A DNA stretch of 32,000 nt from Candidatus Methanophagaceae archaeon (GCA_003194425.1 PQXB01000001.1:700444-732443), one strand, 5' to 3'. Positions 1,037-31,847 are shown, counted from the stretch's first letter. A program made the numbers and translations. The notes: generated by a model from the letters alone, not told the origin.

Positions 1037-3325
1037 ATGACACACCACATCAGAAGAGAAATATTACCGTTTACCGCGATTGTGGGGCAGGAGCGGATGA
1101 AGAAGGCGTTGGTTTTGAACGCGGTTAACCCGCGAATCGGCGGCGTGCTTATTCGGGGCGAGAAGGGGACGGCGAAGTCCACTGCCGTGCGGGCGCTTGC
1201 AGAACTGCTGCCTGAGATTGAGGTGGTAAAAGGCTGTAGGTTCAACTGCAACCCTCACGACGAGGCGGAGATGTGCGACCTCTGCTACGCCAAGAGGACG
1301 AACGAGAGAGCGAACAAGGACGGAGAAGAAGGAGAAGAAGGAGAAGAAGGAGAAGGAAGAGAAGAAGGCGAAGGAAGAGAAGAAGGCGAAGAAGAAGGCG
1401 AAGAAGGCGAAGAAGAAGGCGAAAGAGGAGAAGGACGGGAGGGGAAACAGGAGGTAGCGAGGCGGAGGATGTGGGTCGTCGACCTTCCGCTCGGTGCGAC
1501 CGAGGACAGGGTCGTGGGCTCAATAAATGTGGAGAAGGCGATAAAAGAGGGGATAAAAGCGTTAGAGCCGGGCATTCTGGCTGCTGCGAACCGAGGCATT
1601 CTTTACATCGACGAGGTGAATCTCTTGGACGACCACGTCGCGGATGTCATTCTCGATTCCGCGGCGATGTCAATAAATGTGGTCGAGCGCGAGGGCGTCT
1701 CGGTCTCGCACCCCGCTAAATTCATCCTCGTCGGTACGATGAACCCCGAAGAAGGCGAGCTCAGACCACAACTCCTCGACAGGTTCGGACTTCAAGCCAG
1801 CGTAGAAAGCATCGACGACGCGGAGAAGCGGGTGGAGATTGTGAAGCAGGTGGAGGGTTTTGAACGAGATCCGGCAGAGTTCAGGGAACGGTTCGAGGCG
1901 CGACAGAGAGCGTTGCGGGAGAAGATTGTGCAGGCGAAGCAAATTCTTAAGGCGGTGCAGATTAGCGACGATTTGCTGAAACTGACCGCGGAGACCTGCG
2001 TTAAACTCGGCGTCAGGACGCACCGAGCCGAGATTGTCATCAGCAGGACCGCGAGAACGGCCGCTGCACTCGACGGCAGGAAAGAGGTTACTCTTGAGGA
2101 CCTAAAAGAGGCGATGCAGTTGGCGCTGCCGCACAGAATGCGTAGGAAGCCGTTTGAACCGCCTACTTTGGAGACCGAACGGTTGGACGAGTTGCTGGAT
2201 GAGAAAAAAAAGCAGCCTGAAAAAGAGCCGCAGGAGAAGGAGCAAGAGCAAGAGCAAGAACACCAGCACCAACAAGAAAAAAAGGAGCGGGAAGAGGAGG
2301 GAGAGAAGAAAGGAGGGAGGGAGGAGAAAGGGGGGGAAAAAGAGAAAAAAAATGAGCAAAAACAAGAACCGCAAGAAACGCAAGAAACGCAAAAAGAGTC
2401 GGTTTTTGAGATCGGCGACCCGATTGACACACGAGCAGTAAGGCAGAGGCAGAGAGCGAGGAGGGACCGAAAATACCGCAGGAAAATTTCGGGAAGGCGA
2501 ATTCCTTCTCTCTCGCTTCGCAACAGCGGGAAGTACGTGCGACACGGTCTGCCGAGGGGGGAGCTAAAAGATGTTGCACTTGACGCTACGATTCGCACCG
2601 CCGCACCTTACCAAAAAGAGCGACGACTTGAGTCAGATTCGGGAGTGGCGGATTTGGCGGTCGTTGTAAAAACCGAGGACTTTCGTGAGAAGGTTCGTGT
2701 AGGCAAAATCTCGACCGCCACACTCTTCGTCGTGGACGCTTCGGGTTCAATGGGTGCGAACAGGAGAATGGAGAGTGCAAAGGGTGCCGTTCTCTCTCTA
2801 CTCTTGGACTCTTACCAACAGCGAGACAAAGTCGGACTGGTCGCGTTCAAAGGTAGCCAAGCGGACGTCCTGCTACCGCTCTGCTCAAGCACGGATTTAG
2901 CGGTCGAGCGGCTGAAGGAGCTCCCGACGGGTGGGAGAACGCCGCTCTCCGCTGGTCTTGAGAAGGGGCTGAACCTTCTGACCGTCGAGAGACTGAAGGA
3001 CGAAGAGACGATTCCAATCCTGCTCTTAATCTCGGACGGGCGGGCGAACGTCTCGTTGGGAGGGAAGAAATTGGGAGGGAAGAAAGAAAGAGAGATTAAA
3101 ACCGAGTTGCTCGCACTCGCGGAGCAGGCACGAGCAAACGGCGTTCACCTAATCGCGATCGACACCGAAGAAGTTAGCAAGTCGTTCGTCAGGATGCAAC
3201 TCGGCTACTGCAGGGAAATTGCGAGCCGCTCTGGCGGGCTGTACTACCCTCTCTCCGACCTCACGCCGCAGAAAATTCACGAGGTTGTTACTCAGGAGCA
3301 GGCGGTTTTGGAGACGAAGATGTAA
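1037..3325 (+). CDS. ChlI/BchI-ChlD/BchD-type AAA+ chelatase subunit fusion (AAA+ ATPase N-terminal half, VWA/MIDAS C-terminal domain)
   Basis: The N-terminus [38 protein letters not shown] is a ChlI-type Walker A region. [13 protein letters not shown] is the Walker B. An acidic/Q-rich linker follows. The C-terminus [11 protein letters not shown]...[10 protein letters not shown]...GGRTPL is a VWA MIDAS pattern. Confidence 0.85.
1321..1445 (+). repeat. In-frame purine-rich (GAA/GGA/GGC) micro/minisatellite encoding an (E/G/R) tract inside the ChlI-like domain
   Basis: ggagaagaaggagaagaaggagaagaaggagaaggaagagaagaaggcgaaggaagagaagaaggcgaagaagaaggcgaa... translates to [41 protein letters not shown]. 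It lies just after the Cys-rich [17 protein letters not shown] segment. Confidence 0.85.
2201..2397 (+). repeat. Low-complexity E/K/Q-rich linker coding region (imperfect short repeats)
   Basis: gagcaagagcaagagcaagaac and caagaaacgcaagaaacgcaa repeats encode [38 protein letters not shown]...QETQETQKE. ChlD proteins normally carry an acidic linker at this position, so this tract is partly expected. Confidence 0.6.
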
Positions 3326-3331
3326 AGTAAA

Positions 3332-4412: not shown

Positions 4413-4562
4413 AGAGGGGTTTGGAGGTTTGGAGGAGTGGAAGAGGGGTAGAGGAGTGGAAGAGGGGTAGAGGAGTGGAAGAGGGGTAGAGGAGTGGAAG
4501 AGGGGTAGAGGAGTGGAAGAGGAGTGGAAGAGGGGAAGAGGAGTAGAAGAGAGGAGGGAGAG
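4413..4562 (+). repeat. Intercistronic purine-rich tandem repeat (19-bp unit gaggagtggaagaggggta, 4 full copies plus degenerate copies; also ggtttggag x2)
   Basis: Perfect 19-bp units at 4432-4450, 4451-4469, 4470-4488 and 4489-4507, followed by decayed copies up to the ATPase start. The period is not a multiple of 3, so the tract is non-coding. Confidence 0.85.
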
Positions 4563-5333
4563 ATGAAACTGAAAGTAGAAGGGGTGGAGTTCAGCTACGC
4601 GAGCGTGGAGGTGCTAAAGGGAATTTGTGTAGAGCTTGGCGAGTCGGAAATGCTCGGGGTTGTGGGTCCGAACGGTGCCGGGAAATCTACGCTGATCAGG
4701 TGCATTGACAGGATTCTGACGCCGCAGAGGGGTTGTGTAACGCTAAACGGGCAGGACATAAAAAAGATGCAACAAATGGAACTTGCGAGAAGAATCGGCT
4801 ACATCCCGCAGAACTCTTCACAGGTCTTTCCTGCCACGGTCTTCGACACTGTTCTGATGGGCAGGCGACCGCACCTCGGCTGGCGGAGCAGCGAAAAGGA
4901 CACCGAGAAGGTTTTAGAGGTGCTGGAGTTGATGAAGATTGAGGAGTTCGCGATGCGGGACATTCACGAGCTCAGCGGCGGTCAGCAGCAGAAAGTCTTC
5001 ATCGCACGCGCACTCACGCAAGAGCCTGACATTCTCCTGCTCGACGAGCCGACCTCTAACCTCGACATTCGACACCAGCTTGAAGTGCTGGATGTGATAA
5101 AAGAGGTCGTGCGGCGGAGGGGAATCTCGGCGGTGATGGCAATTCACGACTTGAACCTTGCGTCGAGGTACGCGGACCGGATTGTAATGCTGAACGGTGG
5201 CAGGGTTTTTGCGGCGGGCGAGCCTTCTGCAGTGCTTACGCAGGAGAACATAAAACAGGCTTACGGCGTGGTGGCAGAGGTGAAGAGAGAGAAAGGGCGA
5301 CCTTACATTGTGCCGCTAAGACCGGTGAGTTGA
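4563..5333 (+). CDS. ABC transporter ATP-binding protein (FepC/BtuD-type)
   Basis: Walker A GPNGAGKST, signature LSGGQQQKV and Walker B ILLLDEPTSNLD are present. I place the start at ATG 4563 (MKLKVEGVEFSY) preceded by ggagggag. The track start at 4524 lies inside the tandem repeat. Confidence 0.85.
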   Translation: MKLKVEGVEFSYASVEVLKGICVELGESEMLGVVGPNGAGKSTLIRCIDRILTPQRGCVTLNGQDIKKMQQMELARRIGYIPQNSSQVFPATVFDTVLMGRRPHLGWRSSEKDTEKVLEVLELMKIEEFAMRDIHELSGGQQQKVFIARALTQEPDILLLDEPTSNLDIRHQLEVLDVIKEVVRRRGISAVMAIHDLNLASRYADRIVMLNGGRVFAAGEPSAVLTQENIKQAYGVVAEVKREKGRPYIVPLRPVS

Positions 5334-5386: not shown

Positions 5387-8300
5387 TTACAGTCTTGGCA
5401 GGCTCGGTCTTGGCAGGCTCGGTCTTGGCAGGCTCGCATTCTCGTCCAACCTAAAAGTTCGCCGCATTGAAAATTCAGCCTGTTTCCCCTTGTTCCACTG
5501 TTTCACGGGTCGCAGGTAGCCAACCACCCTTGAGTAGACCTCAGTCTCGGCACCGCATTTTGGGCAGGTGAAATGCTCGCCCGCGATGTAAGCGTGAGTG
5601 GGGCAGACGCTGAAGGAGGGGGTAAAAGAGAAGTAAGGCAGGCGGTAGAGCTCGCAAATCCTTCGCACCAAGACCTTAACAGCAGTAGGATCTTTTACAC
5701 GCTCGCCTGCGAAGATGTGGAATACTGTGCCACCGGTATATTTTGACTGAAATTCGTCCTGCAGGTCTAACGCCTCGAAGAGGTCGTCGGTGAAATTCAC
5801 GGGGAGTTGCGTGGAATTGGTGTAGAACGGTTCTGCTCGCACCGCTCCTGGTCTCCTAAAGCTACCACGCCACTCTGCCTCGTTGGCACAAATTATTCCT
5901 GGTTTCCTAAATCTGAATTTCTTCTTGTCCTTTCTGGCGAGGCGGTAAGAAGTGTTGTGCAAACAGACCAAACCCTCTCCGCCTAAGAAGTTTTGCACGC
6001 TCTCATTCTTCGCATCAACTTCAAAGTCGTAGACAAATTTAGGAGCAGTCAATTTTTTTACGCTCTTTACCGCGTCCCAATAAATGTCTGAATTCAGTAG
6101 ATTCTGAAGTTTTTCCGTCTCTTCGCTCTTCCCTAGGTCAGACAACTTCTGAAGAATTTTTCTGAAATATTGAGCACTTATTCTGTTATTTCTCAGATTT
6201 CTGTTAAAACTGTCTTTGTCAATTTCAATCTGCGAAGGGTTTAGCGAATTTTTTTCCAGTACCGCTTTTATCAATCTCGGGACCTCTGGGAGGTCTTCTC
6301 TACCCTTTGTTATTTCTAATTTCTCTTTAAGAACTTCCCAGAAGAATTGCTTTAGGTTGTCTGCCCCTGTGATTGAGATTACGAAGTTGTCGTTCCAGTT
6401 GGGGTTGCGTTCCGACTTTTTGTCCTTGCTCAGCCGTGCCAAAATGCCAAGTTTTAGGAGGCAGAGGTTTAGCCCGCCCGCCAACTTCTTCGAGTTTGTG
6501 TAAAGTCTTACAGAAAAATCACGGTAAACGCTCCCGCCGCCCAAGAAAAACCCTCTCAAGAGCCCGGAAACGCATTCTTTTGAAGAGGCGAAGACGAAAT
6601 TCGGGATTAATTTTTTGTTACTCCCTCCTTCCAAGCCCACCTCTTTGAAGAACAAAGAGAGCGACTTGCTTAAGGAGACTTCGTAGATTCTCTTTCGGTC
6701 TCGATTTTTAATCTGAACATTCGCAAGACCTGGTCCGAAAACTCTTTCGAGAGACTCGGTAAATTCGTGAGTAAATTCCTTGTCGGTGTTACAGAAGCTG
6801 CTTTGCCCTTCAGACGAGAGGCAAGAGAGAAGAGCGCCAACTACAAACCCCAAATCCCTGTTAGCCGGGATTAAAGCGTTAATCGGGCTTGTATTTTTAC
6901 TGGTTCTGTAAAATATTCTTGACTGTTTTAGGACTTCTCTGCTTACCGCTTCAAAAATTTCCAAGTCGTAGATTAGTTTTAGAGGGATTTTCCTGCTCTT
7001 TCGCCACAGGTATTTTACATTTTTCCAAGCGAGTCTGTAATTCTTCTCGCACCATTCTTTGACCCTTGACCCCTTCCTCTGATTTGAGATTAAATCCTCT
7101 ACGAAGTCAGCGGGGAAGAGAGCGTAAAATTTACCCTTCTTCCGAGACTCCGAGTTCTTGAAAGTTTCAATCAAATTGAACTCTCTACAACACTCCTCCA
7201 ACTCAACCCGCTTCGGGACGGCAACGACCTCGCCTTCTCTCAAGTTCCTAACAAGAATGCTTTCAGGCGCGCCTTCGGGGCTCAAAGTAAAGAGGCTGTG
7301 CTCTCCTGTGACCCTGACTTTTCTTCCAGATTCGGTGGTCACCTCAAACATTGATTTTCCGGGATGCCTGACCAATGCGGTGACCGGATATTTTTTTATT
7401 TTTAGTCTTCTCCTGCTGAAGCCGTAGGAGAATAATTCGCCTTCGGGCAGTTTCAAAACCTCGCTGCACCCACACTGTTGAATCTCTCCTTTCTTGTCTT
7501 CTAATTCAAAATAACCGTCTACCAAAGGTCCGATTGCTGAAAATCTTGGCGCACCCTGAGAGATTAAGACCTCTTCTTCCGGTGCTAAACTGCCTTCGGC
7601 CGGCGTCGCTTCGAGGTTGAAATTGTTACCGGTCTCTTCTTGAAACTCGACCAACCGCTCACGCATAAAATCAAGAACCCGCAGCGTGAACCTCCGCCCG
7701 CTCTCGCTCGCAATTCCCTCGCTCCAGCTCCCCTTCCCCACACTCGAGCCGAACAAGTTCAAGCACGCCTCGTTCATTCCGAGCAGCCCGATTGTGGAGA
7801 AGTGGTTCTTCCAGTACTCGCCGAACCGCTCCTTAACGCCCCGCAGGTAAAACCTTGTGTAAGGGTAGAGTTTCTCGTCGGTGAACTTCTCCAAGACCTT
7901 CCGCTTTATCTCCAAACTCTCCTTCGCCAACTCCATCTGCCTGCCGAGCGACTCCAAGAACGCGTCCTCGCCGCGGTGGCGGGCAAGGTAGCCCAGCCGC
8001 GGCATATTTATTGTTACTACCCCCACACTTCCTGTTAACGGGTTCGACGCAAAGAGTCCACCGCCTCGCTTTCTTAGCTCTCTGTTGTCGATCCTGAGTC
8101 GGCAACACATACTTCGGGCGTCCTCGGGGTTCATATCAGAGTTCACATAATTGCTGAAGTAGGGGACGCCGAACTTGGCGGTGACTTCCCACAAAAGCTC
8201 CAAATTACCGTTCTCCCAGTCGAAGTCTTTGGTGATGCTGTAGGTTGGGATTGGGAAGGAGAAGACGCGGGACTTTGCGTCGCCCTCTGCCATCACTTCC

Positions 8301-9577: not shown

Positions 9578-9949
9578 CTAACCTTTAAGCCTCTTCAAGA
9601 CCAGAATGTCAGGTCTCGGCGGGGCTTTAGAGCCCGCAAACTCCTTCTTACACCGCTCACACAACTCCCTCGCAGTAAGCGTGACCACCTCTTCGCTGCC
9701 CGGCAGTTTCCTGGCGTACACGAACTCTGGCTCAACGCCAACTGCTCTGCTTATTTCTTCCAGCGTCCCTGTTATTTTCGCGCCAAAGACCTCTACATCG
9801 TCGCTCCGCAGACCTCGCAAGTCAGCTGCGAACCCGACGCAGCCGCAGACCATTCCGAAGACCTTCGCCTCAGGCACGAACACATTTCCTACCTGCCTTC
9901 TCAGTTCCGCTTCAAGCCGTTTCCTACCTTCTTTTAACTCTTCTTTCAC
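9578..9949 (-). CDS. Hypothetical 123-aa protein, last gene of the U32-like operon
   Basis: The GTG start overlaps the upstream stop (GTGA at 9946-9949), which suggests translational coupling. No family recognised. Cys pairs are present (CGC, CERC). Confidence 0.5.
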   Translation of the reverse strand: MKEELKEGRKRLEAELRRQVGNVFVPEAKVFGMVCGCVGFAADLRGLRSDDVEVFGAKITGTLEEISRAVGVEPEFVYARKLPGSEEVVTLTARELCERCKKEFAGSKAPPRPDILVLKRLKG

Positions 9950-11013
9950 TTTCTCTCCACCTTCAAAACTTTACTCGTCAGTTCGTCGCAAAACCTGCAC
10001 TCGTCGCAGATTTTTCTGCACCGCTTCCATTTTTTTATGCTCCCCGCCTCTCCCAAGAGTTCGTTGTCCAAGTGAAAAGCGTAGCGGAGTTCGGAGGGGC
10101 AGTCGAGGATTTCAAGCAGGTTTCGCTGGTTGCCTTCCCCCTTAAGTGACCGTTGCGAGTACGCCCGCACGCAATTAATTATCCAGTTCACTGCGTTCGC
10201 CCGCCCCGAAATCTTGAAGTCGTGAATCCCGATCGCTTCGTACTCCGCCAAGTCCTCAGGTCTAATCCACGGCGACCGCACAATTTGCGACGGGTCTCGC
10301 ACTCGGATTGAAATGCACTTGTCGAAGTAGTAGTCGGCGAAGGTGTTCAGGGGTTGTGCCTGTGCCCCTGCGTTCAGGAGCGAGGTGCGGGGGGAGGTAA
10401 TGTGAGAGAAGAGGTTGAAGTGGGCGTGCCTGAACGGGCATTTGTAGAGGCAGCCCTCGTTCACGATCAGTCGGATGTCGCAGTCAACCGCCCGCAAAAT
10501 CGCTTCCAAAACCCCGAAGTCCCTGTTTATATTCGTGTCAAGAGTGATTCCGTCAGCGCCGAGGTCTTCAAAGAATTCGGCACGCTGCGGCGAATTCACA
10601 TGCGCCACGCAAGACACAACCGTCTCGAGCGGTGAGTCGCGCAGCAGCTCCACGAGGTACGGCTCTGCCACTGTAACGCCGTCTACGCCCGCCTTCTCGA
10701 GTTCCCCGAAGTACCACTCAAAAATCCGGTAGCCCTCGAAGGTTAGGTGGAAACCGCCCAAGCAGGACGGGTTCAGCACGATGTTCATTTTTAGGCGGTG
10801 CTGGTGTGCGTACTCGGTCTGCTCTCGAATTTCGTCGATTAGGGCTGCGTGCAGCGTCGCCCGACCGCTGCCCAGCACCTCTGGCGAGCCCGCCATATAA
10901 ACCTCGCTCACCTCGCTCATCTCGCTCGCCTCGTTCAAGCCCCCCGCTTCTTTTGCCGCGATTATTTCTTTCAAAGCCGCGAAATGCCCCGGGTGCGGAA
11001 TTATTAATTTCAT
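9946..11013 (-). CDS. U32-family (UbiU/UbiV/RlhA-like) TIM-barrel Fe-S protein, paralog 2
   Basis: I place the start at ATG 11013 (MKLIIPHPGHF). This aligns with the N-terminus of the upstream paralog and forms an ATGA overlap with its stop. Layout is Gly-rich start, H-x-H-RLKMNIVLN strand, VDGVTVAEPYLVELL, RLIVNEGCLYKCPFRH and a C-terminal CRKICDECRFC cluster. The family call is by eye. Confidence 0.55.
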   Translation of the reverse strand: MKLIIPHPGHFAALKEIIAAKEAGGLNEASEMSEVSEVYMAGSPEVLGSGRATLHAALIDEIREQTEYAHQHRLKMNIVLNPSCLGGFHLTFEGYRIFEWYFGELEKAGVDGVTVAEPYLVELLRDSPLETVVSCVAHVNSPQRAEFFEDLGADGITLDTNINRDFGVLEAILRAVDCDIRLIVNEGCLYKCPFRHAHFNLFSHITSPRTSLLNAGAQAQPLNTFADYYFDKCISIRVRDPSQIVRSPWIRPEDLAEYEAIGIHDFKISGRANAVNWIINCVRAYSQRSLKGEGNQRNLLEILDCPSELRYAFHLDNELLGEAGSIKKWKRCRKICDECRFCDELTSKVLKVERK

Positions 11014-12080: not shown

Positions 12081-12983
12081 ATGAAAGCGATTCTTTTAGC
12101 AGGAGGGTACGCCAAGAGGCTCTGGCCACTGACGAGGGACTGCCCAAAATCGCTGCTCCCGGTTGCGGGTAAGCCGATGATTGACTATATTTTGGACAGA
12201 GTAGAGCAGGTAGAGGAGATTGAAGAGGTGTTCCTGTCCACGAACCGGCGCTTTGAGGCACAGTTCAAGGAATGGCTTGAGACCTACAGAGACAGACACA
12301 AAGGCACAGGAGGCAAAGAGATTGAATTGGTAATTGAGGAGACGAGAGAAGAGGGGGAGAAATTGGGTTCGATTGGGGCGTTGGATTTCTTGATTGACCG
12401 CTTTGGTCTGGAGGAAGATTTGCTGGTCGTGGGAGGAGACAATCTCTTTGACTTTGACCTGCGGGATTTTGTTGGGTTTTACAAGGCGAAGGGAAAGGCG
12501 AAGGGAAAGGCGAAGGGAAAGGCGAAGGGAAAGGCGAAGGGAAAGGCGAAGGGAAAGGCGAAGGGAAAGGCGAAGGGAAAGGCGAAGGGGAAGACGAAGG
12601 GGAAAACAAAGGGAAAGAGAGAGAAGAGCAGTGTAGTGCTTTTGTACGATATGAGAGAGAAGGAGCGGGTGAGAGGGAAGTACGGGGTCTTGGAGGTGGA
12701 CGCGGATTTTAGAATCGTTAATTCTGAAGAGAAGCCAGCAGAACCAAAGACGACCCTAATTTCTACCGCCTGCTACATCTTCACAAAATCTGATTTGGCG
12801 TTGGTCAAAGAATATTTGGCAGCGGGAAATAATCCTGACGCCATCGGGTTCTTCGTCTCTTGGCTGTGCAAGAAGCGGGAGTTGTACGGGCTCGTTCACG
12901 ACGGGCTGTGGTTTGACATCGGGAGTTTTGAGGACTACGAGCGTGCGAATGCGGTTTTTTGCAGTTCGAGGAAGACCTGCTAG
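12081..12983 (+). CDS. Sugar-phosphate nucleotidyltransferase (NDP-sugar pyrophosphorylase family)
   Basis: MKAILLAGGYAKRLWPLTRDCPKSLLPVAGKPMIDYIL is the canonical G-x-G-x-R-L nucleotidyltransferase N-terminus. ATG 12081 is preferred over TTG 12072. The gene contains an internal (KGKA)n insertion. Confidence 0.8.
   Translation: MKAILLAGGYAKRLWPLTRDCPKSLLPVAGKPMIDYILDRVEQVEEIEEVFLSTNRRFEAQFKEWLETYRDRHKGTGGKEIELVIEETREEGEKLGSIGALDFLIDRFGLEEDLLVVGGDNLFDFDLRDFVGFYKAKGKAKGKAKGKAKGKAKGKAKGKAKGKAKGKAKGKTKGKTKGKREKSSVVLLYDMREKERVRGKYGVLEVDADFRIVNSEEKPAEPKTTLISTACYIFTKSDLALVKEYLAAGNNPDAIGFFVSWLCKKRELYGLVHDGLWFDIGSFEDYERANAVFCSSRKTC
12483..12615 (+). repeat. 12-bp tandem repeat (aaggcgaaggga, about 9 perfect plus degenerate copies) encoding (KAKG)n inside the nucleotidyltransferase
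   Basis: aaggcgaagggaaaggcgaagggaaaggcgaaggga... translates to KAKGKAKGKAKG...KTKGKTKGK. The tract is in frame and splits the conserved fold. Confidence 0.9.
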
Positions 12984-15952: not shown

Positions 15953-16027
15953 CCGCTCTTTCCCCTTCCTCTTTTCATCCACCCTTCTCCCTTCCTCTTT
16001 TCATCCGCTCTTTCCCCTTCCTCTTTT
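15950..16027 (-). repeat. 26-bp tandem repeat x3 at the valS start/leader (purine-rich on the valS strand)
   Basis: + strand copies are catccgctctttccccttcctctttt (15950-15975), catccacccttctcccttcctctttt (15976-16001) and catccgctctttccccttcctctttt (16002-16027). Each copy carries an ATG on the minus strand. Confidence 0.85.
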
Positions 16028-16143
16028 GATAAAACTTTTCCTAAAAGTTTTTTGATAAAACTTTTCCTAAAACTTTTTCTTTTTAAGAAAAACTTTACTA
16101 AAAGAAATTTATATTTTTGATCAAACTTTTAGGAAAAGTTTGA
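16026..16143 (-). promoter_or_regulatory. A/T-rich region between tRNA-Arg and valS with three copies of an imperfect palindrome (TTGATnAAACTTTT-nnn-AAAAGTTT) and a TATA-like box
   Basis: Copies lie at 16026-16050, 16052-16076 (26-bp spacing) and 16118-16143, plus a partial copy at 16088-16104. The 8-bp arms AAACTTTT/AAAAGTTT are exact reverse complements. gaaatttatattt (16103-16116) is TATA-like on the minus strand. Confidence 0.4.
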
Positions 16144-16964: not shown

Positions 16965-17208
16965 CTCTCCTCTCGTGTTACTGGAATGGAATTATATCTC
17001 GGCAAATTAATTAACAATATGTTCATATTTCTCTGTTCATATTTCCATTTTTTTCATACTGAATTTTTCTTTTTCATGCAAAGTATTTTTTACTATTTTT
17101 TGCTCTACTCTTTTTTACTCCATATAAACTTATAAACCTTTTTTAGTACCTGCAATTTAGTTTAGTACCTACAATTTAGAATTTGCAATTTAAAAAATGG
17201 GATGAAGA

Positions 17209-20406: not shown

Positions 20407-20833
20407 AAGGGCATTTAAGCAGCAACTGCGTCGCGTTAAGGTGGCTGGGCGAAGTGAGCGTGCCGACGGCGACTACTTTTCGACCCTCTTTTAAGCCTTG
20501 CGGTTGCACTCCAGAATATTCAACCACAATTCTTGCTCGCTCGTTGTCCCCGCTCACTCCTCCGTCCCCTCCCCCGTCTCCAGTGCCACCGTCGGTAAGG
20601 CTAAAGAGCAGCGAGCCGTCTTCTCGCAGAGTAAGAGAGCCGTTGGCGACGGTTGCTAAAATCTGAACCTCTTTGTTGAGGAATTTGTTTTTCCCTCCGT
20701 CTCCTTCACCCACCACTTCGGAGACCGTCAAGTAGGGGTTGAGGTAAGACGAGAAGGCGTCGTAAGCGAGTAGGGCGCTCACGAGAACTAAACCGAGAAC
20801 GACCGCGTGAACAGGCTTAAATTTAAAATTCAT
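20393..20833 (-). CDS. ccmE: Cytochrome c-type biogenesis heme chaperone CcmE, CxxxY variant
   Basis: N-terminal membrane anchor, then an OB-fold-like pattern (YLTVSEVV..., VQILATVANGSL, FSLTD, IVVEYSGVQPQGLKEGRKVVAVG). The C-terminal LLKCPSKYE carries C-P-S-K-Y in place of the bacterial HxxxY heme-binding motif. The 3' end overlaps ileS by 14 nt (convergent). Confidence 0.8.
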   Translation of the reverse strand: MNFKFKPVHAVVLGLVLVSALLAYDAFSSYLNPYLTVSEVVGEGDGGKNKFLNKEVQILATVANGSLTLREDGSLLFSLTDGGTGDGGGDGGVSGDNERARIVVEYSGVQPQGLKEGRKVVAVGTLTSPSHLNATQLLLKCPSKYE

Positions 20834-20986: not shown

Positions 20987-21769
20987 TTAGACTGCTCCTC
21001 CTTCTCCTCTCACTTCTCCTCCTTCTCCTCCTTCTCCTCCTTCTCCTTTTCTGTAAATTAACGCTTCTACGCGGTCTTCTAACGACCAAACCGAGTAGGC
21101 GGTCGTCAAAAGGTAAGCGAAGAACAGTGTGGCTGCCAAGAGGTTCAAATACAAAACCGCCTGCACCGGTGCGGAGGAAGAGACTTTTGAGGCTTGAGGG
21201 TGCAGCGAGAGCAGGAGCGTTGCCGACAAAAAACTCAGTGGAATTGTAGAGAACGCAAGAATGTTGTAGACCGCGCCCACGACCGCTCGCTTCTCAACGC
21301 TCCCGATTGAGCGTTTCACCGAGAGGTAGCCCACGTACGCGACCCAGAGAATTAGCGTCGTCGTCTCCCGTGGGTCCCAGTTCCAGTACGCCCCCCACGC
21401 TGCTTCCGCCCAGACCGCGCCCGAAATCAAGGCGACCGCACCGTAAACCAGCCCCAAAACCGCCGACACCTCTGCCAGCCTGTCCAACTTGTCCAACTTC
21501 TCCAACCGGTCTAACTTCTCCAACCTCTTCGACTCGTCTGCCGACTTGCCCAAATTGTTTTTTGCAGCCAAAAAGCCGACGCTCGCGAGCAGAGAAATCG
21601 AGAAAGCGAGGTAGCAGATCCAGGCTGTAGGCACGTGTAGGTACAAGAAAAAAATGTCGCTCCTTTCCGCCTGCACCCCGGGGCCGAGGTAAGCAGCGTA
21701 AGAGGCGACTACGCTTACTGCTACGGCGACGCAGAGGAGAATGTTCTGCCCAACTGCACTTGTTTTCAT
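20987..21769 (-). CDS. ccmC: Heme exporter/heme lyase-like protein CcmC
   Basis: LHVPTAW (conserved His), tryptophan-rich WWD motif WGAYWNWDPRETTTLILW, and a second conserved His in LLLSLHPQ. Contains an inserted LEKLDRLEKLDKLDRL repeat and a C-terminal GEGGEGGEGGE tail. Confidence 0.85.
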   Translation of the reverse strand: MKTSAVGQNILLCVAVAVSVVASYAAYLGPGVQAERSDIFFLYLHVPTAWICYLAFSISLLASVGFLAAKNNLGKSADESKRLEKLDRLEKLDKLDRLAEVSAVLGLVYGAVALISGAVWAEAAWGAYWNWDPRETTTLILWVAYVGYLSVKRSIGSVEKRAVVGAVYNILAFSTIPLSFLSATLLLSLHPQASKVSSSAPVQAVLYLNLLAATLFFAYLLTTAYSVWSLEDRVEALIYRKGEGGEGGEGGEVRGEGGAV

Positions 21770-21773: not shown

Positions 21774-22640
21774 CTAATATTTTATCCTCTTGTTTAAAAT
21801 AAAAATTATTAAGGCTGCTGCTAAACCTTCAACCAGCCCAAAGCCTGGAATTAAGAACGTTTTGCTTGTTTCCTGCGGTGTTGGTGCAGGCGAGGCTGCC
21901 GGCGTTGGTGTAAGGGGTAGTGTTGGGTTTGGCGTTGGACTTGGCGTTGGACTTGGTGTTAATCTCGGGCTTGGTGAAGGCAGGGGAAGGGATTCCGCAG
22001 AGACTACGCTAACCGTCTTTTCTACTTCACCCGCGGAAATCAAAAATTCCCCAAACGGAACTCCCTCTGTGCTGAGATTAAGCAGGAAATCGCCGTTCGA
22101 ATCCGCGGTAACTTTGATTGACATTTCGCTCTTCAAGACCACCGCGGTCGCCCCCTCCGCAGCGGCGCCGTAGACCTTGACATTCTTTCTACCTGAAATG
22201 TCTATTTTTGTCCCGTGCATTCTTGCTGGAAATGAAATAGAAAGCGTGGCAACACCGTCCTCCGTTGCGTCTTCAGGTCCTGACAAAGGGTATTCAATCG
22301 TGTGCCAGAACACCGGACTTAACGAAACCCTGATATTTTTTACATTCTCCGCGGTTACCGAGAACCTCTTCTCTCCAGCCGGGAAGTGGACGCCTGCAAA
22401 CTCGCAAGCGTATTTTCCGTCAGAAACGGAGACGGGCAGAGAGAACTCAAAAGATGAACTTAACCAAACCGCCTCGTTTGGCGCCGCCTTCCCGGAAATT
22501 GACGCTTCTCTGCCTTGCAAAATCTCGGAAGGGCCGTTCAATTCCGTTACCTCTGCACTCGTGGAGGAGATAAAAAAGGAGGCAGAGAGAGCCAGTAAAA
22601 GCAGAAATGCCGCCAACCGTGTAGATCTTCTTGTCTTCAT
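21774..22640 (-). CDS. Secreted surface protein with PT-rich linker and PGF-CTERM archaeosortase sorting signal
   Basis: Signal peptide MKTRRSTRLAAFLLLLALSASFFISSTSA. Beta-rich body. Linker PSPSPRLTPSPTPSPTPNPTLPLTPTPAASPAPTP. C-terminus IPGFGLVEGLAAALIIFILNKRIKY (PGF motif, TM, basic tail). The stop lies 4 nt before the ccmC ATG. Confidence 0.7.
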   Translation of the reverse strand: MKTRRSTRLAAFLLLLALSASFFISSTSAEVTELNGPSEILQGREASISGKAAPNEAVWLSSSFEFSLPVSVSDGKYACEFAGVHFPAGEKRFSVTAENVKNIRVSLSPVFWHTIEYPLSGPEDATEDGVATLSISFPARMHGTKIDISGRKNVKVYGAAAEGATAVVLKSEMSIKVTADSNGDFLLNLSTEGVPFGEFLISAGEVEKTVSVVSAESLPLPSPSPRLTPSPTPSPTPNPTLPLTPTPAASPAPTPQETSKTFLIPGFGLVEGLAAALIIFILNKRIKY

Positions 22641-22702: not shown

Positions 22703-24103
22703 TTAGTTCCTTTTTCGCCTTCTCGTCGCACCCTCTCTGACTGCAAGAACGACCGCCAGCAGCCCAATCATCGCCGTTAGCCCAGTCGTAGTGAACTCTG
22801 GCACTGGCATTGGTGGTTTTGGACCCCCTACACCGCCGGGGTCTTCGATTTTTCCGTCTTTACCTAAATCGTCGTCTCCTCTCTCCCCGTCGACAAAATG
22901 CAGTGTCACTTCTTTGCCGTCAATCTTCGCCCCTGTCCCTGTCGTTTCGTCGTACATAAATTTGTACCAGTGCTTCGTGTGGTTGTCTGGCGTCCGTCCG
23001 TACTTCCAATATTCTGCCTCCGCAGGCAAATCAGAAGGCAGAACGATTTTTACAGTAGCGTTCCCGCCAGCGGACGAGAGGTTTTTTATTGTGAACGAGA
23101 AGAAGCCGTGCGGGAACTCTACGCCACTCGGCTTGCCCTCTTCTGGCAGCGTCTCCTCCGCCACCGCTTCTACACGCTCAAAGTAACCGTCGGTCGTCTC
23201 GAAAGTCGCAAATTCCTCTCCAGGTGGTGCGGTGTCCAACTTGACCTCCACTCGAATTGTGCCGTTCTTCGCTCCGCCGTTTGAGGCTACGGCAATTGTG
23301 CCGGTCTTTATGCCACCGCTCGAAAGTTTTGTCTTGTCGATTGACACAGTTACGGTTGTGTTAGTCCCTGAAGAAGGCGAGACCGAAATCCAAGGCTTAC
23401 TTGCTGTTACAGTCCAATTTAACGTAGTGCCTGGGTCTCCACAATTGGTTATTTTAAAAGTCCATTCCCGCATCTCGCCTGGTTTGACAATTCCAAAGTT
23501 GTGCGAGAGCGAGTCTGGTGCGGTGCAAAGTAGCGGACCCAGAGTCGGCGTTGGAGTTGGCGTCGGTGTTGGCGTCGGTGTTGGAGTTGGAGTTGGCGTC
23601 GGTGGTGTGCCCAAAATAGTGAAAAACCCGTTCCTTAAAGAAACTACAGGAATGTCCGTCATCGTCGGATCCTGCAACTTCACGTCTGTCAGTTCCAGCG
23701 GACTCGTGTCGCCGGCAACACCCTTCGCCTGCAAAGTGACATCACAGATTTTTACATCTCCGTTCAAGCCTGTAGAGAATTGCATTGCATTTATCACTAC
23801 CCAGCCCGGTCCTGTCTCCGTCGGTGGGTTCTGCGGCGGAAGGTCAAAATCGCTACTCGTGTCTGTAGCGGTGACTGTGACCACGGTCTCGTCGAAAGTC
23901 AAGTTGACCTCTACACTGCCCGCGTTCGTCACATCTTTTATCATCAGCGGGACGACAGCAGTTTCACCAGGGTCTGCAGAGCCGTCGCCGATTTCAATTG
24001 TCGTCGCTGCTACCACTGTTACCGCTGTTGCCGCTGTCAAGACGAAAGCCGTGGAGACTAACACTGAAATTGCTAACGCTGCTAAAAACCTCTCTTTACT
24101 CAT
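22703..24103 (-). CDS. Secreted cohesin-domain protein with PT linker, two beta-sandwich domains and a PEF-CTERM-like anchor
   Basis: Signal peptide, then a cohesin-like module TIEIGDGSADPGETAVVPLMIKDVTNAGSVEVNLTFDETVV...GDVKICDVTLQAKGVAGDTSPLELTDVKLQD. Then (PT)n. Then a domain ending HFVDGERGDDDLGKDGKIEDPGG. C-terminus VPEFTTTGLTAMIGLLAVVLAV...RRRKRN. Confidence 0.7.
   Translation of the reverse strand: MSKERFLAALAISVLVSTAFVLTAATAVTVVAATTIEIGDGSADPGETAVVPLMIKDVTNAGSVEVNLTFDETVVTVTATDTSSDFDLPPQNPPTETGPGWVVINAMQFSTGLNGDVKICDVTLQAKGVAGDTSPLELTDVKLQDPTMTDIPVVSLRNGFFTILGTPPTPTPTPTPTPTPTPTPTPTLGPLLCTAPDSLSHNFGIVKPGEMREWTFKITNCGDPGTTLNWTVTASKPWISVSPSSGTNTTVTVSIDKTKLSSGGIKTGTIAVASNGGAKNGTIRVEVKLDTAPPGEEFATFETTDGYFERVEAVAEETLPEEGKPSGVEFPHGFFSFTIKNLSSAGGNATVKIVLPSDLPAEAEYWKYGRTPDNHTKHWYKFMYDETTGTGAKIDGKEVTLHFVDGERGDDDLGKDGKIEDPGGVGGPKPPMPVPEFTTTGLTAMIGLLAVVLAVREGATRRRKRN
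23627..24018 (-). repeat. Cohesin-coding repeat, copy A (near-identical to 27358-27749; shorter match to 25379-25722)
   Basis: By-eye alignment at a constant offset of 3731 nt to copy C shows only scattered mismatches over about 390 nt. Confidence 0.85.
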
Positions 24104-24816: not shown

Positions 24817-24829
24817 TTTTCCTACTGCT

Positions 24830-24869
24830 AAAAAAATAAAAAAAGGTGAGTAAAAAAAGAAAACTCACC
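24830..24869 (-). terminator. Hairpin plus oligo-T (terminator/attenuator-like) between two cohesin genes
   Basis: Minus strand: ggtgagt-(11-nt loop)-actcacc followed by ttttttttattttttt. It starts about 10 nt after the stop of 24879..25844. A decayed homolog of the same intergenic sequence lies at about 22660-22700. Confidence 0.4.
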
Positions 24870-24878
24870 CAAAATTTT

Positions 24879-27864: not shown

Positions 27865-27943
27865 TTTTCATTCACCTCCTAATCTTTTTCTTAATGAAGT
27901 TTGTAAGGCTTCATTAGCGTAACAAAATTTGTTTTTGTTTTTA

Positions 27944-29467: not shown

Positions 29468-29504
29468 CTTCTTTTCCTTTTTTAAAAACGTAATATAAAA
29501 GGAA

Positions 29505-29541: not shown

Positions 29542-29581
29542 TGGTTTTGTTCTGATTTCTTTCAAAAATGCCCCTTTTTTC

Positions 29582-30487
29582 TTACACATATCCCCTTAAA
29601 TCCTCCCTCTCCTGCCCCCTCTTTCTCGCTCCCTCTCCTCCTTCCCCTTCTCCTCCTTCCCCTTCTCCTCCTTCCCCTTCTTCTCCTTCCCCTTCCCTCT
29701 CTTCTCCTTTCCCCATTCCTTCGATCAGCTCTCGCTCCGCCGTTCCCCGCTCTTCCAACTCCGAAGTGTCAATTTCAATTCCCAATATTTCGCCGACCTT
29801 CCCCGCCAACTCCTTCGCAGCTCTGAAATCAGGGTACTCGGGGTTCGCCAAATTCGGCGTCGTGCTTGCGAACAGACAGACGCCGCCAATTCCCTTCTCT
29901 CGCGCTAACGCGACCACAAGCCCCGGAAAGCCTAAAAATCTGTCCACGTTCGTCCTCTTAATCTCGTACTTGTACATTTCCTCCAACAACTCCAAATCGG
30001 TCGCGCAGTCCGTAATTCCCTCCTCAACTACCTGCGCACCCAGCGAAATCACCCGCTTCACCCCCAACTCCTTGAAGAAGTCCGCTACCTTGTCGGCGAC
30101 TGCGTACTGGTTAAGGGCGTTGTAAGACTGGTAGCCTCGTGTAATTAAAATGTCGTTCTCGCCCGAGCCCGCCGATTCAAGAGCGTAAAATTCCACGCTT
30201 GGCAGCCGAGCCAGACCGCCGCGCTCTAACTTCGCACCCACACCGCAGGGCGCGCCAAGGTAAGAGGGACCGTAGTAAGCAGCCGGGAAACCGTAAGAGA
30301 AAAGTTCAGCGAAGAGTCGTGGTTTGGGCTGCGTCTTCGCCACTAACTCGTCTACTACAATTCGCCCGACAGACCGCAGTCCCGACGAGCCGACTACCGC
30401 CACCGGCTCCTTTAACTTCTCCCTGCCCTCCTCCGCCCCTCTCTTCTCGTCCTGATAATTTATCCACACTCTTCTCGTCGTTCGCAT
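29582..30487 (-). CDS. PAC2-family (proteasome assembly chaperone-like / COG1938) protein
   Basis: VAVVGSSGLRSVGRIVVDELV... and ...DILITRGYQSYNALNQYAVADKVADFFKELGVKRVISLGA resemble archaeal PAC2 family members (by eye). The C-terminal GEGEEGEGGEGEGGEGEGGEG tail is encoded by a 15-bp repeat at about 29631-29695. Confidence 0.5.
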   Translation of the reverse strand: MRTTRRVWINYQDEKRGAEEGREKLKEPVAVVGSSGLRSVGRIVVDELVAKTQPKPRLFAELFSYGFPAAYYGPSYLGAPCGVGAKLERGGLARLPSVEFYALESAGSGENDILITRGYQSYNALNQYAVADKVADFFKELGVKRVISLGAQVVEEGITDCATDLELLEEMYKYEIKRTNVDRFLGFPGLVVALAREKGIGGVCLFASTTPNLANPEYPDFRAAKELAGKVGEILGIEIDTSELEERGTAERELIEGMGKGEEREGEGEEGEGGEGEGGEGEGGEGARKRGQEREDLRGYV

Positions 30488-30545
30488 TTTCTTAAATCTT
30501 AAATTAAATTTTTTTCTTTTTCCCTTTTTCTTTTCTCGCTTAAAA

Positions 30546-31847
30546 ATGAGTGAAGAAATGTTGAGGTTGTCGCGGCTGTGTTACCAGTGCGGCGAGTGCA
30601 CGGCAGCCTGTCCGCTGCGGAGGGTTTCAAGGTTCTCGCCCCGCCGCATTTTGTACGACCTTGCTGCTGCAAATGCAGATGTTTTAAAGACCGACGAGGA
30701 CGACGAGAAAGACCTGTGGAACTGTCTGGTCTGCGAGAACTGCTACATAGTTTGTCCGCAGGAAGTTGATTTTCCGGCTCTCGTGCTAAAATTGAGGAGC
30801 GAGGAGGGAGGTGCTGCTGCAGGTGCTGCTGCAAGTGCTGCTGTAAGTGCTGCTGCAAGTGCTGTTGCGAGGAAGGAGAGTTTAGCGCACCGCGAGTTCT
30901 CGGAAATCGCCAGTTTTATGACCTGCTTTGAGAAGGGCGTGCCGACGGATTTCGGGGTCGGTGGAGAGACGGACGAGGAGAGCGAGTACGGGTACTTCCC
31001 AGGCTGTCTGGATTATTATGACCTGTTCTTTGATCTCGGCGTGAACTACCACGAAATCGGAGACTGCACGGTGCGGCTGCTGAACGCGGTTGGGATAAAG
31101 CCGCGAATTCTGAGTCTGAAGTGCTGCGGGCACGACGCGCTCTTTCAGGGCAACCGCAAAGTCTTTGAGAAACTCGCTGCCTACAACACCCGAAAAATAA
31201 AGGAGTCGGGCATAAAAAAACTCGTTGTGAGCTGTGCCGAGGGTTTCCTGACTTTTAAAAAATATTACGAACTCGCGGCGAGTGGGGGTGCGGAAGGGGC
31301 GGAAGGGGCAGAGGGAGTGGAGGAGGTAGAGAGGGTGAGGGAGGTAGAGAGGGTGGAGGTCTTACACATCTCGGAATTGCTGAGCGAGCGTGGAGAGAAG
31401 CTGAATTTTAAGGCGGGCAAGGAGGGCAGTCGCACCGTAACGGTAGCCTACCACGACCCGTGTGCGTTTAAGCGGTTTGGGTTGTACGAGGCGCCGAGAG
31501 AGGCGTTAAAGAAGGCGGGTGCGGGGGTGAAACTTGTAGAACTGACGCACGCCAAGGAAAACGCGGTCTGTTGCGGCGTTAGCGGAATGATGAACTGCAA
31601 CGACCGGAGCAAAGCACTGCGGGCGTTTAGGCTGGACGAGGCGAGGGCGAAGAAGGTGGACGTGCTGGTGACTACCTGCCCAAAGTGTCTCTCGCATTTT
31701 AGTTGTCTGAAGCGGGAAACCGAGAGGGAGAGGGGGGGCAGGGAGAGGGGGGGGGAGAAGGAGCGAGAGGAGGGGAGAGTGGGCGGTGGCGAGTACGATT
31801 TTGAGGTGCTTGACCTCTCGGTGTTTTTGGGGCGGTTGTTGAAATGA
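30546..31847 (+). CDS. HdrD-like Fe-S protein (HdrC-like 2x[4Fe-4S] domain fused to two HdrB-like CCG domains)
   Basis: CYQCGECTAACP and CLVCENCYIVCP are ferredoxin-type motifs. The CCG motifs are ...YFPGC...LKCCGHD... and ...YHDPC...AVCCGVSG...TTCPKC. Interrupted by an Ala-rich repeat (12-bp unit, 30811-30870), a (GAEG)/(VEEVERV) repeat (31286-31360) and a C-terminal R/E/G tract. Confidence 0.7.
   Translation: MSEEMLRLSRLCYQCGECTAACPLRRVSRFSPRRILYDLAAANADVLKTDEDDEKDLWNCLVCENCYIVCPQEVDFPALVLKLRSEEGGAAAGAAASAAVSAAASAVARKESLAHREFSEIASFMTCFEKGVPTDFGVGGETDEESEYGYFPGCLDYYDLFFDLGVNYHEIGDCTVRLLNAVGIKPRILSLKCCGHDALFQGNRKVFEKLAAYNTRKIKESGIKKLVVSCAEGFLTFKKYYELAASGGAEGAEGAEGVEEVERVREVERVEVLHISELLSERGEKLNFKAGKEGSRTVTVAYHDPCAFKRFGLYEAPREALKKAGAGVKLVELTHAKENAVCCGVSGMMNCNDRSKALRAFRLDEARAKKVDVLVTTCPKCLSHFSCLKRETERERGGRERGGEKEREEGRVGGGEYDFEVLDLSVFLGRLLK

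Follow-up and report, generated by a model that had tools for sequence, protein, structure and literature searches.

The closest described parallel to the tandem arrays reported here comes from the Borg elements of Methanoperedens, in which perfect tandem repeats (TRs) make up 0.62% of the genome (Schoelmerich et al. 2023, PLoS Biol, PMC9879509). In Borgs the genic repeat units are all divisible by three, against 14–38% of the intergenic units; the coding strand of the repeats is enriched in A and depleted in T and G, the encoded repeats are disordered, the number of units varies within populations, and TRs are 'virtually absent' (≤0.01%) from the chromosomes of the Borg hosts (PMC9879509). 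Here we describe short tandem arrays in a 32,000-nucleotide stretch of DNA from Candidatus Methanophagaceae archaeon (GCA_003194425.1 PQXB01000001.1:700444-732443), hereafter the window, where they interrupt conserved genes and fill non-coding leaders on the chromosome of an ANME-1 archaeon. We suggest that these arrays, found in one ANME-1 species, are probably the outcome of a lineage-specific tandem duplication that is independent of microhomology, followed by slippage and filtered by selection.

In bacterial contingency loci, units of 1–8 nt shift the reading frame or the promoter spacing, and surface or restriction-modification genes are thereby switched at very high rates. The housekeeping proteins of Plasmodium falciparum contain Asn/Lys-rich low-complexity inserts, driven by extreme AT content, and the purine loading of mRNA-synonymous strands (Szybalski's rule) was reportedly described by Lao and Forsdyke in 2000. 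In prokaryotes, low-complexity regions (LCRs) grow by proliferation of short repeats, and housekeeping single-copy families were largely placed at LCR = 0 in a recent survey (Persi, Wolf, Karamycheva, Makarova and Koonin 2023, PNAS, PMC10120016). Our literature search on tandem repeats and low complexity in ANME-1 gave no description of the phenomenon for an ANME-1 chromosome, and a 2026 paper on structural variation in ANME-1 left out variants of 50 bp or less.

Results

Density of the arrays and its restriction to one lineage

Tandem Repeats Finder (TRF), run on the 32-kb window, returned 81 rows at a score of at least 30, and the rows at a score of at least 50 were merged into arrays. The window contains 24 merged arrays covering 2161 nt, whereas 30 shuffles, in which the dinucleotide content was kept within 500-bp blocks, gave 0.3 ± 0.5 arrays and never more than 2. 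The original prediction, made by a model reading the DNA alone, had described window-wide tandem repeats in at least ten genes, and nearly all of its loci were found by TRF within a few bases. About twelve genes do carry arrays with scores of at least 50, but one of these cases is a protein-domain duplication (26452-27249). The repeat proposed in CcmE (about 20560-20600) turned out to be a purine-rich low-complexity stretch without detectable tandem structure, while the one at 31286-31360 in the HdrD-like gene is present, but weakly periodic (TRF scores 35–40). The leaders described as filled with repeats correspond to TRF arrays at 4432-4563 and 15948-16078, and the two exceptions to the purine-rich rule, an Ala repeat (30811-30868) and (SLPRP)3 (5392-5436), are both real.

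With 7.5 arrays per 10 kb, the window contrasts with the about 0.5 per 10 kb counted across 468 kb of 39 other ANME-1-type loci. These other lineages show the same purine-rich sense strand and about 15 times fewer arrays; the sense purine loading of the repeat-poor relatives is 0.57–0.59 versus 0.60 here, and long purine runs in IleRS are similar in number. Since the relatives are equally purine-loaded and yet poor in arrays, the repeats are specific to this lineage and purine loading alone is insufficient to produce them. For the same reason purine loading or thermophily was rejected as a sufficient cause, the equally loaded and repeat-poor relatives including the G60 ANME-1 locus (L030). When the criteria for perfect TRs were taken from the Borg paper (no mismatch, at least 50 nt and at least three units), coverage was 0.62% in the window (2 regions in 32 kb) and 0.54–1.04% in the sister-strain stretches described below, against 0.04% in the other ANME-1 loci and 0.02% in outgroup loci.

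As out-of-sample sequence we used 16.6 kb lying past both window ends in a sister strain (L086 11324-21323 and L087 1-6620), which holds 18 TRF arrays, at 9.0 and 13.6 per 10 kb. Because this flanking DNA shows the same pattern, the phenomenon is not peculiar to the first 32 kb. The unit sequence is different at every array, the units being contiguous, locus-specific and derived from the flanking native sequence; a mobile element, a dispersed repeat (REP/MITE-like) and a CRISPR were all rejected, as the units are locus-specific, native and contiguous.

Source organism and chromosomal setting

The window comes from the chromosome of an ANME-1 (Methanophagales) archaeon, conspecific with the metagenome-assembled genome (MAG) ex4572_4, and the habitat of the species is hydrothermal sediment of the Guaymas/Pescadero type. 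A 90%-identity cluster of ValRS unites the window's own protein, which is encoded on a 1,187,124-bp contig, with 'ANME-1 cluster archaeon ex4572_4' and other MAG proteins. According to Chadwick et al. 2022, ex4572-4, from a Guaymas Basin mat at 50–80 °C, and GB37, from an enrichment at 37 °C, belong to one species, Methanophagaceae gen. nov. 3. A search with IleRS led to about 40 ANME-1 (Methanophagales) loci, the top match having just 72% amino acid (aa) identity. The GC content is about 52% in the window (56% in IleRS) versus 41–47% in the nearest ANME-1 lineages by IleRS identity, with equal purine loading.

The window encodes ValRS, IleRS, L40e, a tRNA-Arg and an intein-containing NrdD, and its flanks encode L31e, L39e and eIF6; these genes place it on the main chromosome and not on an extrachromosomal element. 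Across strains of this ANME-1 species the region is syntenic; its genes occupy both strands and change orientation five times. The possibility that it belongs to a Borg-like element was rejected in view of the chromosomal genes, the synteny among strains and the coding on both strands. The gene identities proposed from the sequence were confirmed by Pfam, with matches to an AAA+/VWA chelatase, NTP_transferase, CcmE, CcmC-type Cytochrom_C_asm, PAC2 and Fer4+CCG.

Reading frame, strand and composition

All 19 coding arrays of the window have a unit length divisible by three, compared to one out of five non-coding arrays (units of 19, 26, 19, 12 and 22 nt). In the out-of-sample DNA, the ten arrays located in real genes all have a period divisible by three and a sense purine content of 0.80–1.00, and the non-coding periods are 17, 14, 19, 19, 13, 19 and 15. 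The preservation of the frame that had been predicted is visible also among the indels that separate strains, which are multiples of three in 22 of 24 coding cases and in 6 of 32 intergenic ones. This difference indicates that the process yields any length and that selection purges frame-breaking events from genes.

Thirteen coding arrays of the window have a purine content of at least 0.7 on one strand, and in each of them, across the five orientation switches, that strand is the sense strand. Together with the ten coding arrays outside the window, this bears out the rule of the original prediction that the purine-rich strand tracks the orientation of the gene; pooling window and flanks, the sense strand is the purine-rich one in 23 of 23 coding and 9 of 9 non-coding arrays with a strong skew. 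A replication-strand bias was rejected, since within 32 kb gene orientation changes five times and the purine-rich strand changes with it. On the sense strand, the coding arrays contain 36% A, 44.5% G, 14% C and 5% T, versus 26, 31, 22.5 and 20%, respectively, in genes, and Gly, Glu, Lys and Arg account for 63% of the array residues. The eight codons made of purines only (RRR) encode exclusively Lys, Arg, Glu and Gly and include no stop codon in any frame, while those made of pyrimidines only (YYY) encode Phe, Leu, Ser and Pro.

The sense purine content is 0.58–0.60 for cytoplasmic genes on either strand, and the repeat-poor relatives show a like excess (0.57–0.59), so that purine loading is a necessary background and not the cause of the repeats. 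Outside the arrays, the runs from which repeats could be seeded are likewise unequal on the sense strand, purine runs exceeding pyrimidine runs by 3.2–7.4 to 1 in genes and by 1.2–1.6 to 1 in intergenic DNA.

Variation among strains

The window was compared with L081-L087 (six loci found in five further conspecific assemblies; ENA, JGI and NCBI), the strain DNA being recovered through protein clusters and then through the contigs encoding the cluster members; exact matching of the window's own NTase and ValRS had led to no contig. At aligned non-array sites the window and the strains differ mutually by 0.04–0.76%. Despite this low divergence, 11 of the 15 arrays in the DNA alignment differ in length, with all differences within genes being multiples of three, and when the PAC2 tail, the HdrD-like Ala repeat and (RERGG)n are added, the polymorphic arrays are 14 of 18 assessable; expansions that had been called recent and possibly polymorphic thus do vary in copy number. 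In contrast, proteins without arrays of score at least 50 are constant in length among complete cluster members (FecCD 359, ABC ATPase 256 and CcmE 146 aa). Tandem duplications or deletions of adjacent sequence explain 17 of the 24 distinct coding indels. A perfect 14-bp tandem duplication (at about window position 18111) splits the essential IleRS gene of L083 (ex4572_4) into 308 + 730 aa, and represents either a captured out-of-frame duplication, with the ensuing damage, or an assembly error. Assuming Poisson accumulation, each array changes length about 200 times as fast as a single site is substituted; this instability is modest and far below that of a phase-variation switch.

Could the arrays, or their variation, be produced by assembly or polishing? 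Assembly errors are well known to arise at tandem repeats, and the longest arrays are near the k-mer size of short-read assemblers. However, assemblies made independently agree on the arrays and on their sites, while they show graded copy numbers and differing internal unit variants, and this agreement on sites extends over different assemblers (MEGAHIT- and SPAdes-style contig names) and archives (NCBI, JGI, ENA, Logan). Moreover, arrays of 21–84 nt are far below the read length, and the reading frames are kept. Since independent assemblies share the sites together with graded copies and unit variants, we regard an artefact as excluded, or in any case as extremely improbable.

Founding duplications

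To follow how arrays are born we considered seven perfect two-copy duplications. Five are duplication alleles in other strains (corresponding to window positions 12293, 12023, 17150, 18111 and 20878), and two lie at arrays listed in Table 1, namely EAWS at 13589, double in L081-L083 and single in the window, and LYGRQEG at 13804, two-copy in the window. In all seven, the periodicity continues for only 0–3 nt past two whole units, about what chance would give, and several of the duplicated sequences lack purine enrichment, so that births depend neither on microhomology nor on the type of sequence. That arrays arise from local sequence is indicated by the (LYGRQEG) unit, which contains the native, universally conserved SRLYGR motif. 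Once an array has more than two units, slippage or unequal recombination could account for its changes. The idea that a two-letter purine alphabet offers more microhomology and hence more slippage was rejected, because births take place without microhomology and are not confined to purine tracts.

Births free of microhomology suit an enzymatic process better than passive slippage, and a dedicated or element-derived activity (a polymerase, a nuclease or a recombinase), as in Borgs, might build perfect repeats at A/G-rich sites and leave to selection merely the trimming of the product. Such an activity would fit the perfect-TR coverage of the window, which equals the Borg mean and contrasts with 0.04% in other ANME-1 and ≤0.01% in Methanoperedens hosts, as well as the sharp confinement of the phenomenon to particular genomes and the shared frame rule, locus-unique units, T depletion, population variation and disordered inserts. 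However, no candidate enzyme was seen in the 32-kb window, many arrays are imperfect (76–96% matches) while Borg TRs are perfect, and the bias is towards A+G and not towards A alone; furthermore, the range of units from 9 to 27 bp implies no single fixed stagger, and any high duplication rate combined with selection would leave the same signature. On balance we consider this explanation unlikely.

Leader arrays

In each of the nine skewed non-coding arrays, the purine-rich strand is that of the co-directional or downstream gene. Four of them abut a start codon, a fifth lies about 60 nt upstream of one, and most contain repeated GGAG/GAGG motifs. Folding predicted 0.0 kcal/mol for three of the four leaders tested and, for the ValRS leader, −0.07 versus −0.26 kcal/mol per nt in the coding background. 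The 26-bp unit of the ValRS leader joins a Shine-Dalgarno-like run to a GGATGAA start region, and every extra copy adds an upstream ATG; start-codon annotation at genes with such leader repeats is unreliable. One member of the ValRS cluster (P0126) has a 10-residue N-terminal extension running into the leader repeat. The reading of the leader arrays as translated N-terminal extensions is argued against by the units of 19 and 26 nt and by the TAG stops within units. The only match in Rfam was a tRNA, and the leader arrays did not match any known RNA family. The bias of the leaders would thus point to selection, or at least tolerance, acting at the level of the mRNA for unstructured and mostly Shine-Dalgarno-rich leaders.

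Inserts in conserved proteins

The prediction of in-frame inserts in otherwise conserved proteins was confirmed by the extra residues of ValRS, IleRS and NTase, which coincide with arrays. ValRS has 899 aa versus 807–836 aa in other ANME-1 (about 80 aa longer), the surplus residues being at the arrays; IleRS has nine lineage-specific segments, for a total of 69 aa, at arrays, and the sugar-nucleotidyltransferase (NTase) is about 50 aa longer than its relatives, again with the surplus at the array. Several inserts are degenerate, as expected of decayed arrays.

Structural models located the inserts of NTase and ValRS in loops of low confidence, which had been suggested as a check. In the AlphaFold model of NTase (mean confidence score, pLDDT, 86), the (KAKG)n insert is the sole long segment with pLDDT <50 (residues 144-177), with helix 130-141 on one side and strand 187-193 on the other. 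For ValRS (AlphaFold model, mean pLDDT 74), six lineage-specific inserts coincide with loops of pLDDT <50 between secondary-structure elements. The (LYGRQEG) insert lies in segment 706-724, between two helices, and (AGTGA)n in segment 498-515, both with pLDDT <50.

These features raise the question of whether the arrays are adaptive, with inserts improving solubility, heat tolerance or interactions, leaders acting as tunable translation enhancers, and variation akin to that of contingency loci. Several strains have inserts at the same loops, most leader arrays contain many Shine-Dalgarno-like motifs, several abut the start codon without predicted structure, and the organism comes from a mat at 50–80 °C and from an enrichment culture at 37 °C. 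On the other hand, unrelated housekeeping enzymes are struck indiscriminately, and thermophilic relatives, e.g., G60 ANME-1 (L030), have no arrays. The number of copies also varies freely among near-identical strains, including alleles with one copy or no insert (CERLNGEEE of IleRS is absent in L082, and NTase has 3–11 units), the units never shift the frame, so that no on/off switching could result, and the instability, at about 200 times the point substitution, is modest. An adaptive origin seems to us quite unlikely.

Features of the window

The arrays and related features are listed in Table 1.

Table 1. Tandem arrays and related features of the window, with the changes seen among conspecific strains.
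Feature	Position	Strand	Array	Among strains
Chelatase (AAA+/VWA)	1312..1435	+	9-bp GGAGAAGAA x12.3, E/G/R tract, sense purine 0.94	Protein of 750, 752, 762 or 770 aa
Chelatase linker	2296..2392	+	18-bp x2.1 and 9-bp x3.3	
Chelatase VWA domain	3056..3085	+	Perfect 15-bp x2, (LGGKK)2	
Non-coding intercistronic leader, FecCD stop to ABC-ATPase ATG (4563)	4432..4563	+	19-bp GAGGAGTGGAAGAGGGGTA x6.5, preceded by an 8-bp GGTTTGGA array; purine 0.91; 27 GGAG/GAGG motifs; predicted minimum free energy 0.0 kcal/mol	+52, −84, +5, −16 nt
NrdD C-terminal tail	5392..5436	-	Perfect 15-bp x3, (SLPRP)3; purine 0.53, unskewed	−15 and +33 nt in two strains
U32-like protein A	10901..10937	-	9-bp x4.1 (SEMSEVSE), sense purine 0.76	No variation
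NTase	12483..12617	+	12-bp AAGGCGAAGGGA x11.2, 95% matches, (K[A/T]KG)n, sense purine 0.92	11, 8, 6, 6, 6, 6, 3 copies in seven conspecific genomes; 0 in other ANME-1
ValRS	13566..13600	-	12-bp (EAWS)1-2 adjoining DPSDPS	+12 or −3 nt
ValRS	13804..13848	-	Perfect 21-bp x2.1, (LYGRQEG)2; unit includes native SRLYGR motif	1, 2, 3 or 4 copies (15 cluster members)
ValRS	14404..14448	-	15-bp x3 (AGTGA)n, sense purine 0.82	1–3 copies, ±15 nt
ValRS 5' leader	15948..16078	-	26-bp x3.1 + 26/12-bp AT-rich array, sense purine 0.79	−26, −52, −77 nt
Non-coding, upstream of IleRS	17142..17179		19-bp x2; purine 0.42, unskewed	Additional perfect 26-bp duplication in L082
IleRS	18934..18979	+	18-bp x2.6 (EGREGK)n, all purine	One unit fewer in four other strains
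IleRS	19903..19931	+	Perfect 15-bp x1.9 (QERNK)2 within 19-aa lineage-specific insert	Invariant
CcmE	20556..20600	-	GGTGDGGGDGGVSGD, G/D-rich, purine-rich low complexity, no tandem periodicity detected; possibly a decayed array	
CcmC C-terminal tail	20995..21047	-	9-bp x5.6 (GEG)n, sense purine 0.98	+9 or +12 nt in other strains
CcmC loop	21468..21539	-	27/9-bp array (27 bp x2.6), LEKLDR-like, sense purine 0.71	Invariant
Secreted protein	21929..21960	-	12-bp x2.7 (TPSP) linker	
Cohesin-module protein	23542..23602	-	6/12-bp (PT)n linker	L082 144 nt longer
Secreted cohesin-cluster protein, domain repeat	26452-27249	-	330 bp x2.4; domain duplication, different kind	
PAC2 stop codon and 3' region	29556..29597	-	22-bp x2, sense purine 0.76	
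PAC2 C-terminal tail	29634..29714	-	15-bp x5.1 (GEGEE/GEGGE)n, sense strand all purine	Cluster members of 291–308 aa; length variation at the tail site maps to the GEGEE block
HdrD-like Fe-S protein	30811..30868	+	12-bp x4.8, Ala-rich (AAAG/AAAS); purine 0.48, unskewed	4 or 8 residues shorter in some strains
HdrD-like	31290..31352	+	Weak 9-bp and 8-bp purine-rich periodicities (AEGAEGAEGVEEVERV), TRF scores 35–40	
HdrD-like	31725..31779	+	15-bp x2 (RERGG)2 (31725-31753) + degenerate G/E/R tract, purine 0.97	(RERGG)n region −5 or +7 aa

Besides the arrays, the window shows other features of gene content. The L40e gene (48 aa, 13047-13193, minus strand), under the 100-aa cut-off of the open reading frame (ORF) list, lies directly downstream of ValRS, and the tRNA-Arg (anticodon TCG, 16144-16216, minus strand) lies between the ValRS leader array and a radical-SAM remnant; two strains have deletions of 65–85 bp near this tRNA. 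The radical-SAM gene, at 16256-16930, is whole (454–471 aa) in L081, L083 and L084; the window copy lacks segments of 171, 333 and 139 bp and amounts to a remnant ORF of 145 aa, and in L082 the gene is broken into 257 + 202 aa, so that it appears to be decaying in some strains. NrdD (5387-9274, minus strand) contains an intein with a LAGLIDADG endonuclease domain, according to Pfam matches on the L082 orthologue, and its ORF has a 21-bp indel in one strain and a 3-bp indel in another (window positions 8041 and 8377). Two tandem paralogous genes for peptidase-U32-like proteins, with about 78% DNA identity, are found at 9946-12017 (minus strand), and a DUF5402 gene (9578-9949) is downstream of the pair on the coding (minus) strand. 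Five secreted proteins are clustered at 22703-29164 (minus strand), four of them with cohesin modules that are nearly the same in all four (92–94% DNA identity between paralogues); two proteins of the cluster end in duplicated dockerin-like segments (GDVxPYDGDGVVDFMGD...). The DNA of L081 and L084 past CcmC (window positions >21790) could not be aligned to the window, which suggests that the gene content beyond CcmC differs in these two strains.

Discussion

The explanation we favour can be set out as a series of steps. In this lineage, and not generally in ANME-1, DNA stretches of 9–27 bp would be tandem-duplicated unusually often and anywhere in the sequence. To judge from the seven births, the founding event is independent of pre-existing repeats; once an array exists, whole units are gained and lost, as the strains document, and the likeliest mechanism is replication slippage or unequal recombination. 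The contrast between coding and intergenic DNA shows that only units that are multiples of three persist in genes, whereas any length persists in intergenic DNA. A further selection on composition would follow from the genetic code: the great majority of arrays that survive in genes have only purines on the sense strand, and purine-only inserts would become flexible, charged surface loops or tails, while the YYY alternative would give Phe, Leu, Ser and Pro. The supply of seeds acts in the same direction, the sense strand being already purine-loaded, with purine runs exceeding pyrimidine runs by 3–7 to 1. Point mutation would then erode the arrays into cryptic low-complexity inserts, leaving proteins 5–20% longer than their orthologues. 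In the leaders, the surviving 5' arrays, purine-rich on the mRNA strand, mostly with GGAG/GAGG and predicted unstructured, may have passed a comparable filter.

Several points weigh against this explanation. The species was sampled over about 49 kb in total, and junctions with almost no microhomology are at odds with slipped-strand mispairing as the way in which arrays begin. Some copy differences could be due to collapse, since at about 130 nt the longest arrays are near the k-mer length of short-read assemblies; against collapse, strains differ in the A/T variants within their units, and the arrays of 21–84 nt are well inside the read length. In addition, the supply of seeds predicts that 76–88% of the coding arrays are purine-rich on the sense strand, whereas 23 of 23 were observed (P about 0.002–0.05); for the skewed non-coding arrays the expectation from seeds is about 55–62% and the observation 9 of 9 (P about 0.004–0.013), and the selection on the mRNA invoked for these nine is itself a putative filter.

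The coding bias being slightly above the seed supply, a further filter is needed, and selection at the protein level may provide it. In the leaders, where protein-level selection is inapplicable, the bias calls either for selection on the mRNA or for a transcription-linked mutational bias. The original prediction had attributed the strand rule to a transcription- or coding-linked process or to selection: for the coding arrays, the supply of purine runs and protein-level selection would suffice, while for the leaders either selection on the mRNA or the mutational bias could account for the excess.

The mutational option can be taken further. Purine-rich transcripts might form R-loops or triplexes, stall replication and cause duplications wherever the non-template strand is purine-rich, in which case the strand rule would be of mutational origin. 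Such transcription-coupled mutagenesis would account for the leaders exceeding the seed expectation and for a bias that flips with gene orientation five times in 32 kb and is hence untied to the direction of replication. Nevertheless, recent events taking one copy to two are seen out of frame, and also in sequence without purine enrichment (TCTTCTCTATCTATTTTA, TGCAATTTAGTTTAGTACCTACAATT, GAGCGGTTAAAAGG), so births do not seem restricted to purine tracts; the unskewed arrays (the Ala repeat, SLPRP and the PT linkers) are equally polymorphic, and the transcripts of the repeat-poor relatives are as purine-loaded. Overall, transcription-coupled mutagenesis is very unlikely to be the origin of the arrays.

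Returning to lineage-specific duplication followed by selection, it may be asked how far the resemblance to Borgs extends. It is possible, though we regard it as doubtful, that the repeat-forming process known from Borgs also runs in the main chromosome of a cellular methanotroph, where it reaches essential genes; its founding step, independent of microhomology, would then depend on a lineage-specific activity or on a defect of replication or repair, and the leader arrays would work as structure-free landing pads for ribosomes, variable in copy number.

Whatever the founding mechanism, repeat-rich and repeat-poor ANME-1 with equal purine loading offer a natural comparison for finding the trigger, which could be a polymerase, flap processing, a nuclease or a resident element, and the species is available in enrichment culture according to the literature. 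The conserved proteins, growing by 5–20% through birth, expansion and decay of repeats, show this growth in progress, and the arrays can be used as high-resolution strain markers for ANME-1 populations. Caution is required, in this lineage, with the length of orthologues, with gene calls at repeat-bearing starts and with short-read assemblies. Even if nothing more than mutation and a selective filter is involved, this would still be an unusually clean prokaryotic case in which the genetic code decides which repeats are tolerated.

Comparison with known systems

Like the contingency loci, the window has tandem repeats of variable copy number both in genes and upstream of starts; unlike them, the units are of 9–27 nt, the genic ones are in frame, the genes concerned are housekeeping genes, and the mutability is about 200 times that of a single site. 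Szybalski's rule is reflected in the sense-strand purine excess, which holds irrespective of gene orientation; however, this loading is common to repeat-poor ANME-1, so that it may bias which repeats are seen without explaining their origin. The polymorphic surface-loop inserts of P. falciparum are similarly proteome-wide and lineage-specific, and mirror a nucleotide bias, but in a eukaryote, whereas here they occur in an archaeon with 52% GC and are rich in G/E/K/R.

The prokaryotic LCRs and the in-frame variable-number tandem repeats (VNTRs) share with our arrays the head-to-tail genic repeats that expand and contract, a process attributed to slippage, and that fade by point mutation. In-frame coding VNTRs share also the copy-number polymorphism between strains with the reading frame kept, but the junction microhomology expected from a slipped-strand origin was not seen here (seven duplications, 0–3 nt). 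In contrast to the survey of Persi et al., the arrays are carried by ValRS, IleRS, NrdD, CcmC and the PAC2 chaperone, and their density is a property of the lineage and not of the gene family.

The likeness to Borgs is closer. Under the same criteria the density of perfect TRs is equal (0.62%), genic units are always multiples of three and intergenic units mostly are not, the units are formed locally and are unique to each locus, and their number varies between close relatives; in both systems the encoded repeats are predicted to be disordered, and the phenomenon is sharply genome-specific. In composition the agreement is partial: T is depleted and A enriched on the coding strand in both, but G, which rises even more here (44.5% versus 31% in genes), is depleted in Borg TRs. 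The differences lie first in the replicon, which here is a cellular ANME-1 chromosome with genes on both strands, while Borgs are giant, linear and extrachromosomal, with a single coding strand in each replichore. The carriers are also different, being mostly cytoplasmic here (chelatase, NTase, ValRS, IleRS, NrdD, PAC2 and HdrD-like) and mainly extracellular or membrane proteins in Borgs, a pattern that only the PT linkers and CcmC match. Moreover, the bias is towards A+G (E/G/K/R) here, as against A with P/T/D/K in Borgs, and many of our arrays are imperfect or decayed. The arrays of the window are therefore of a known kind, that of LCRs derived from tandem repeats, with the Borg TRs as the best parallel, but in an unexpected new case: a Borg-like signature, at Borg density, in an ANME-1 chromosome and within aminoacyl-tRNA synthetases and other housekeeping genes.

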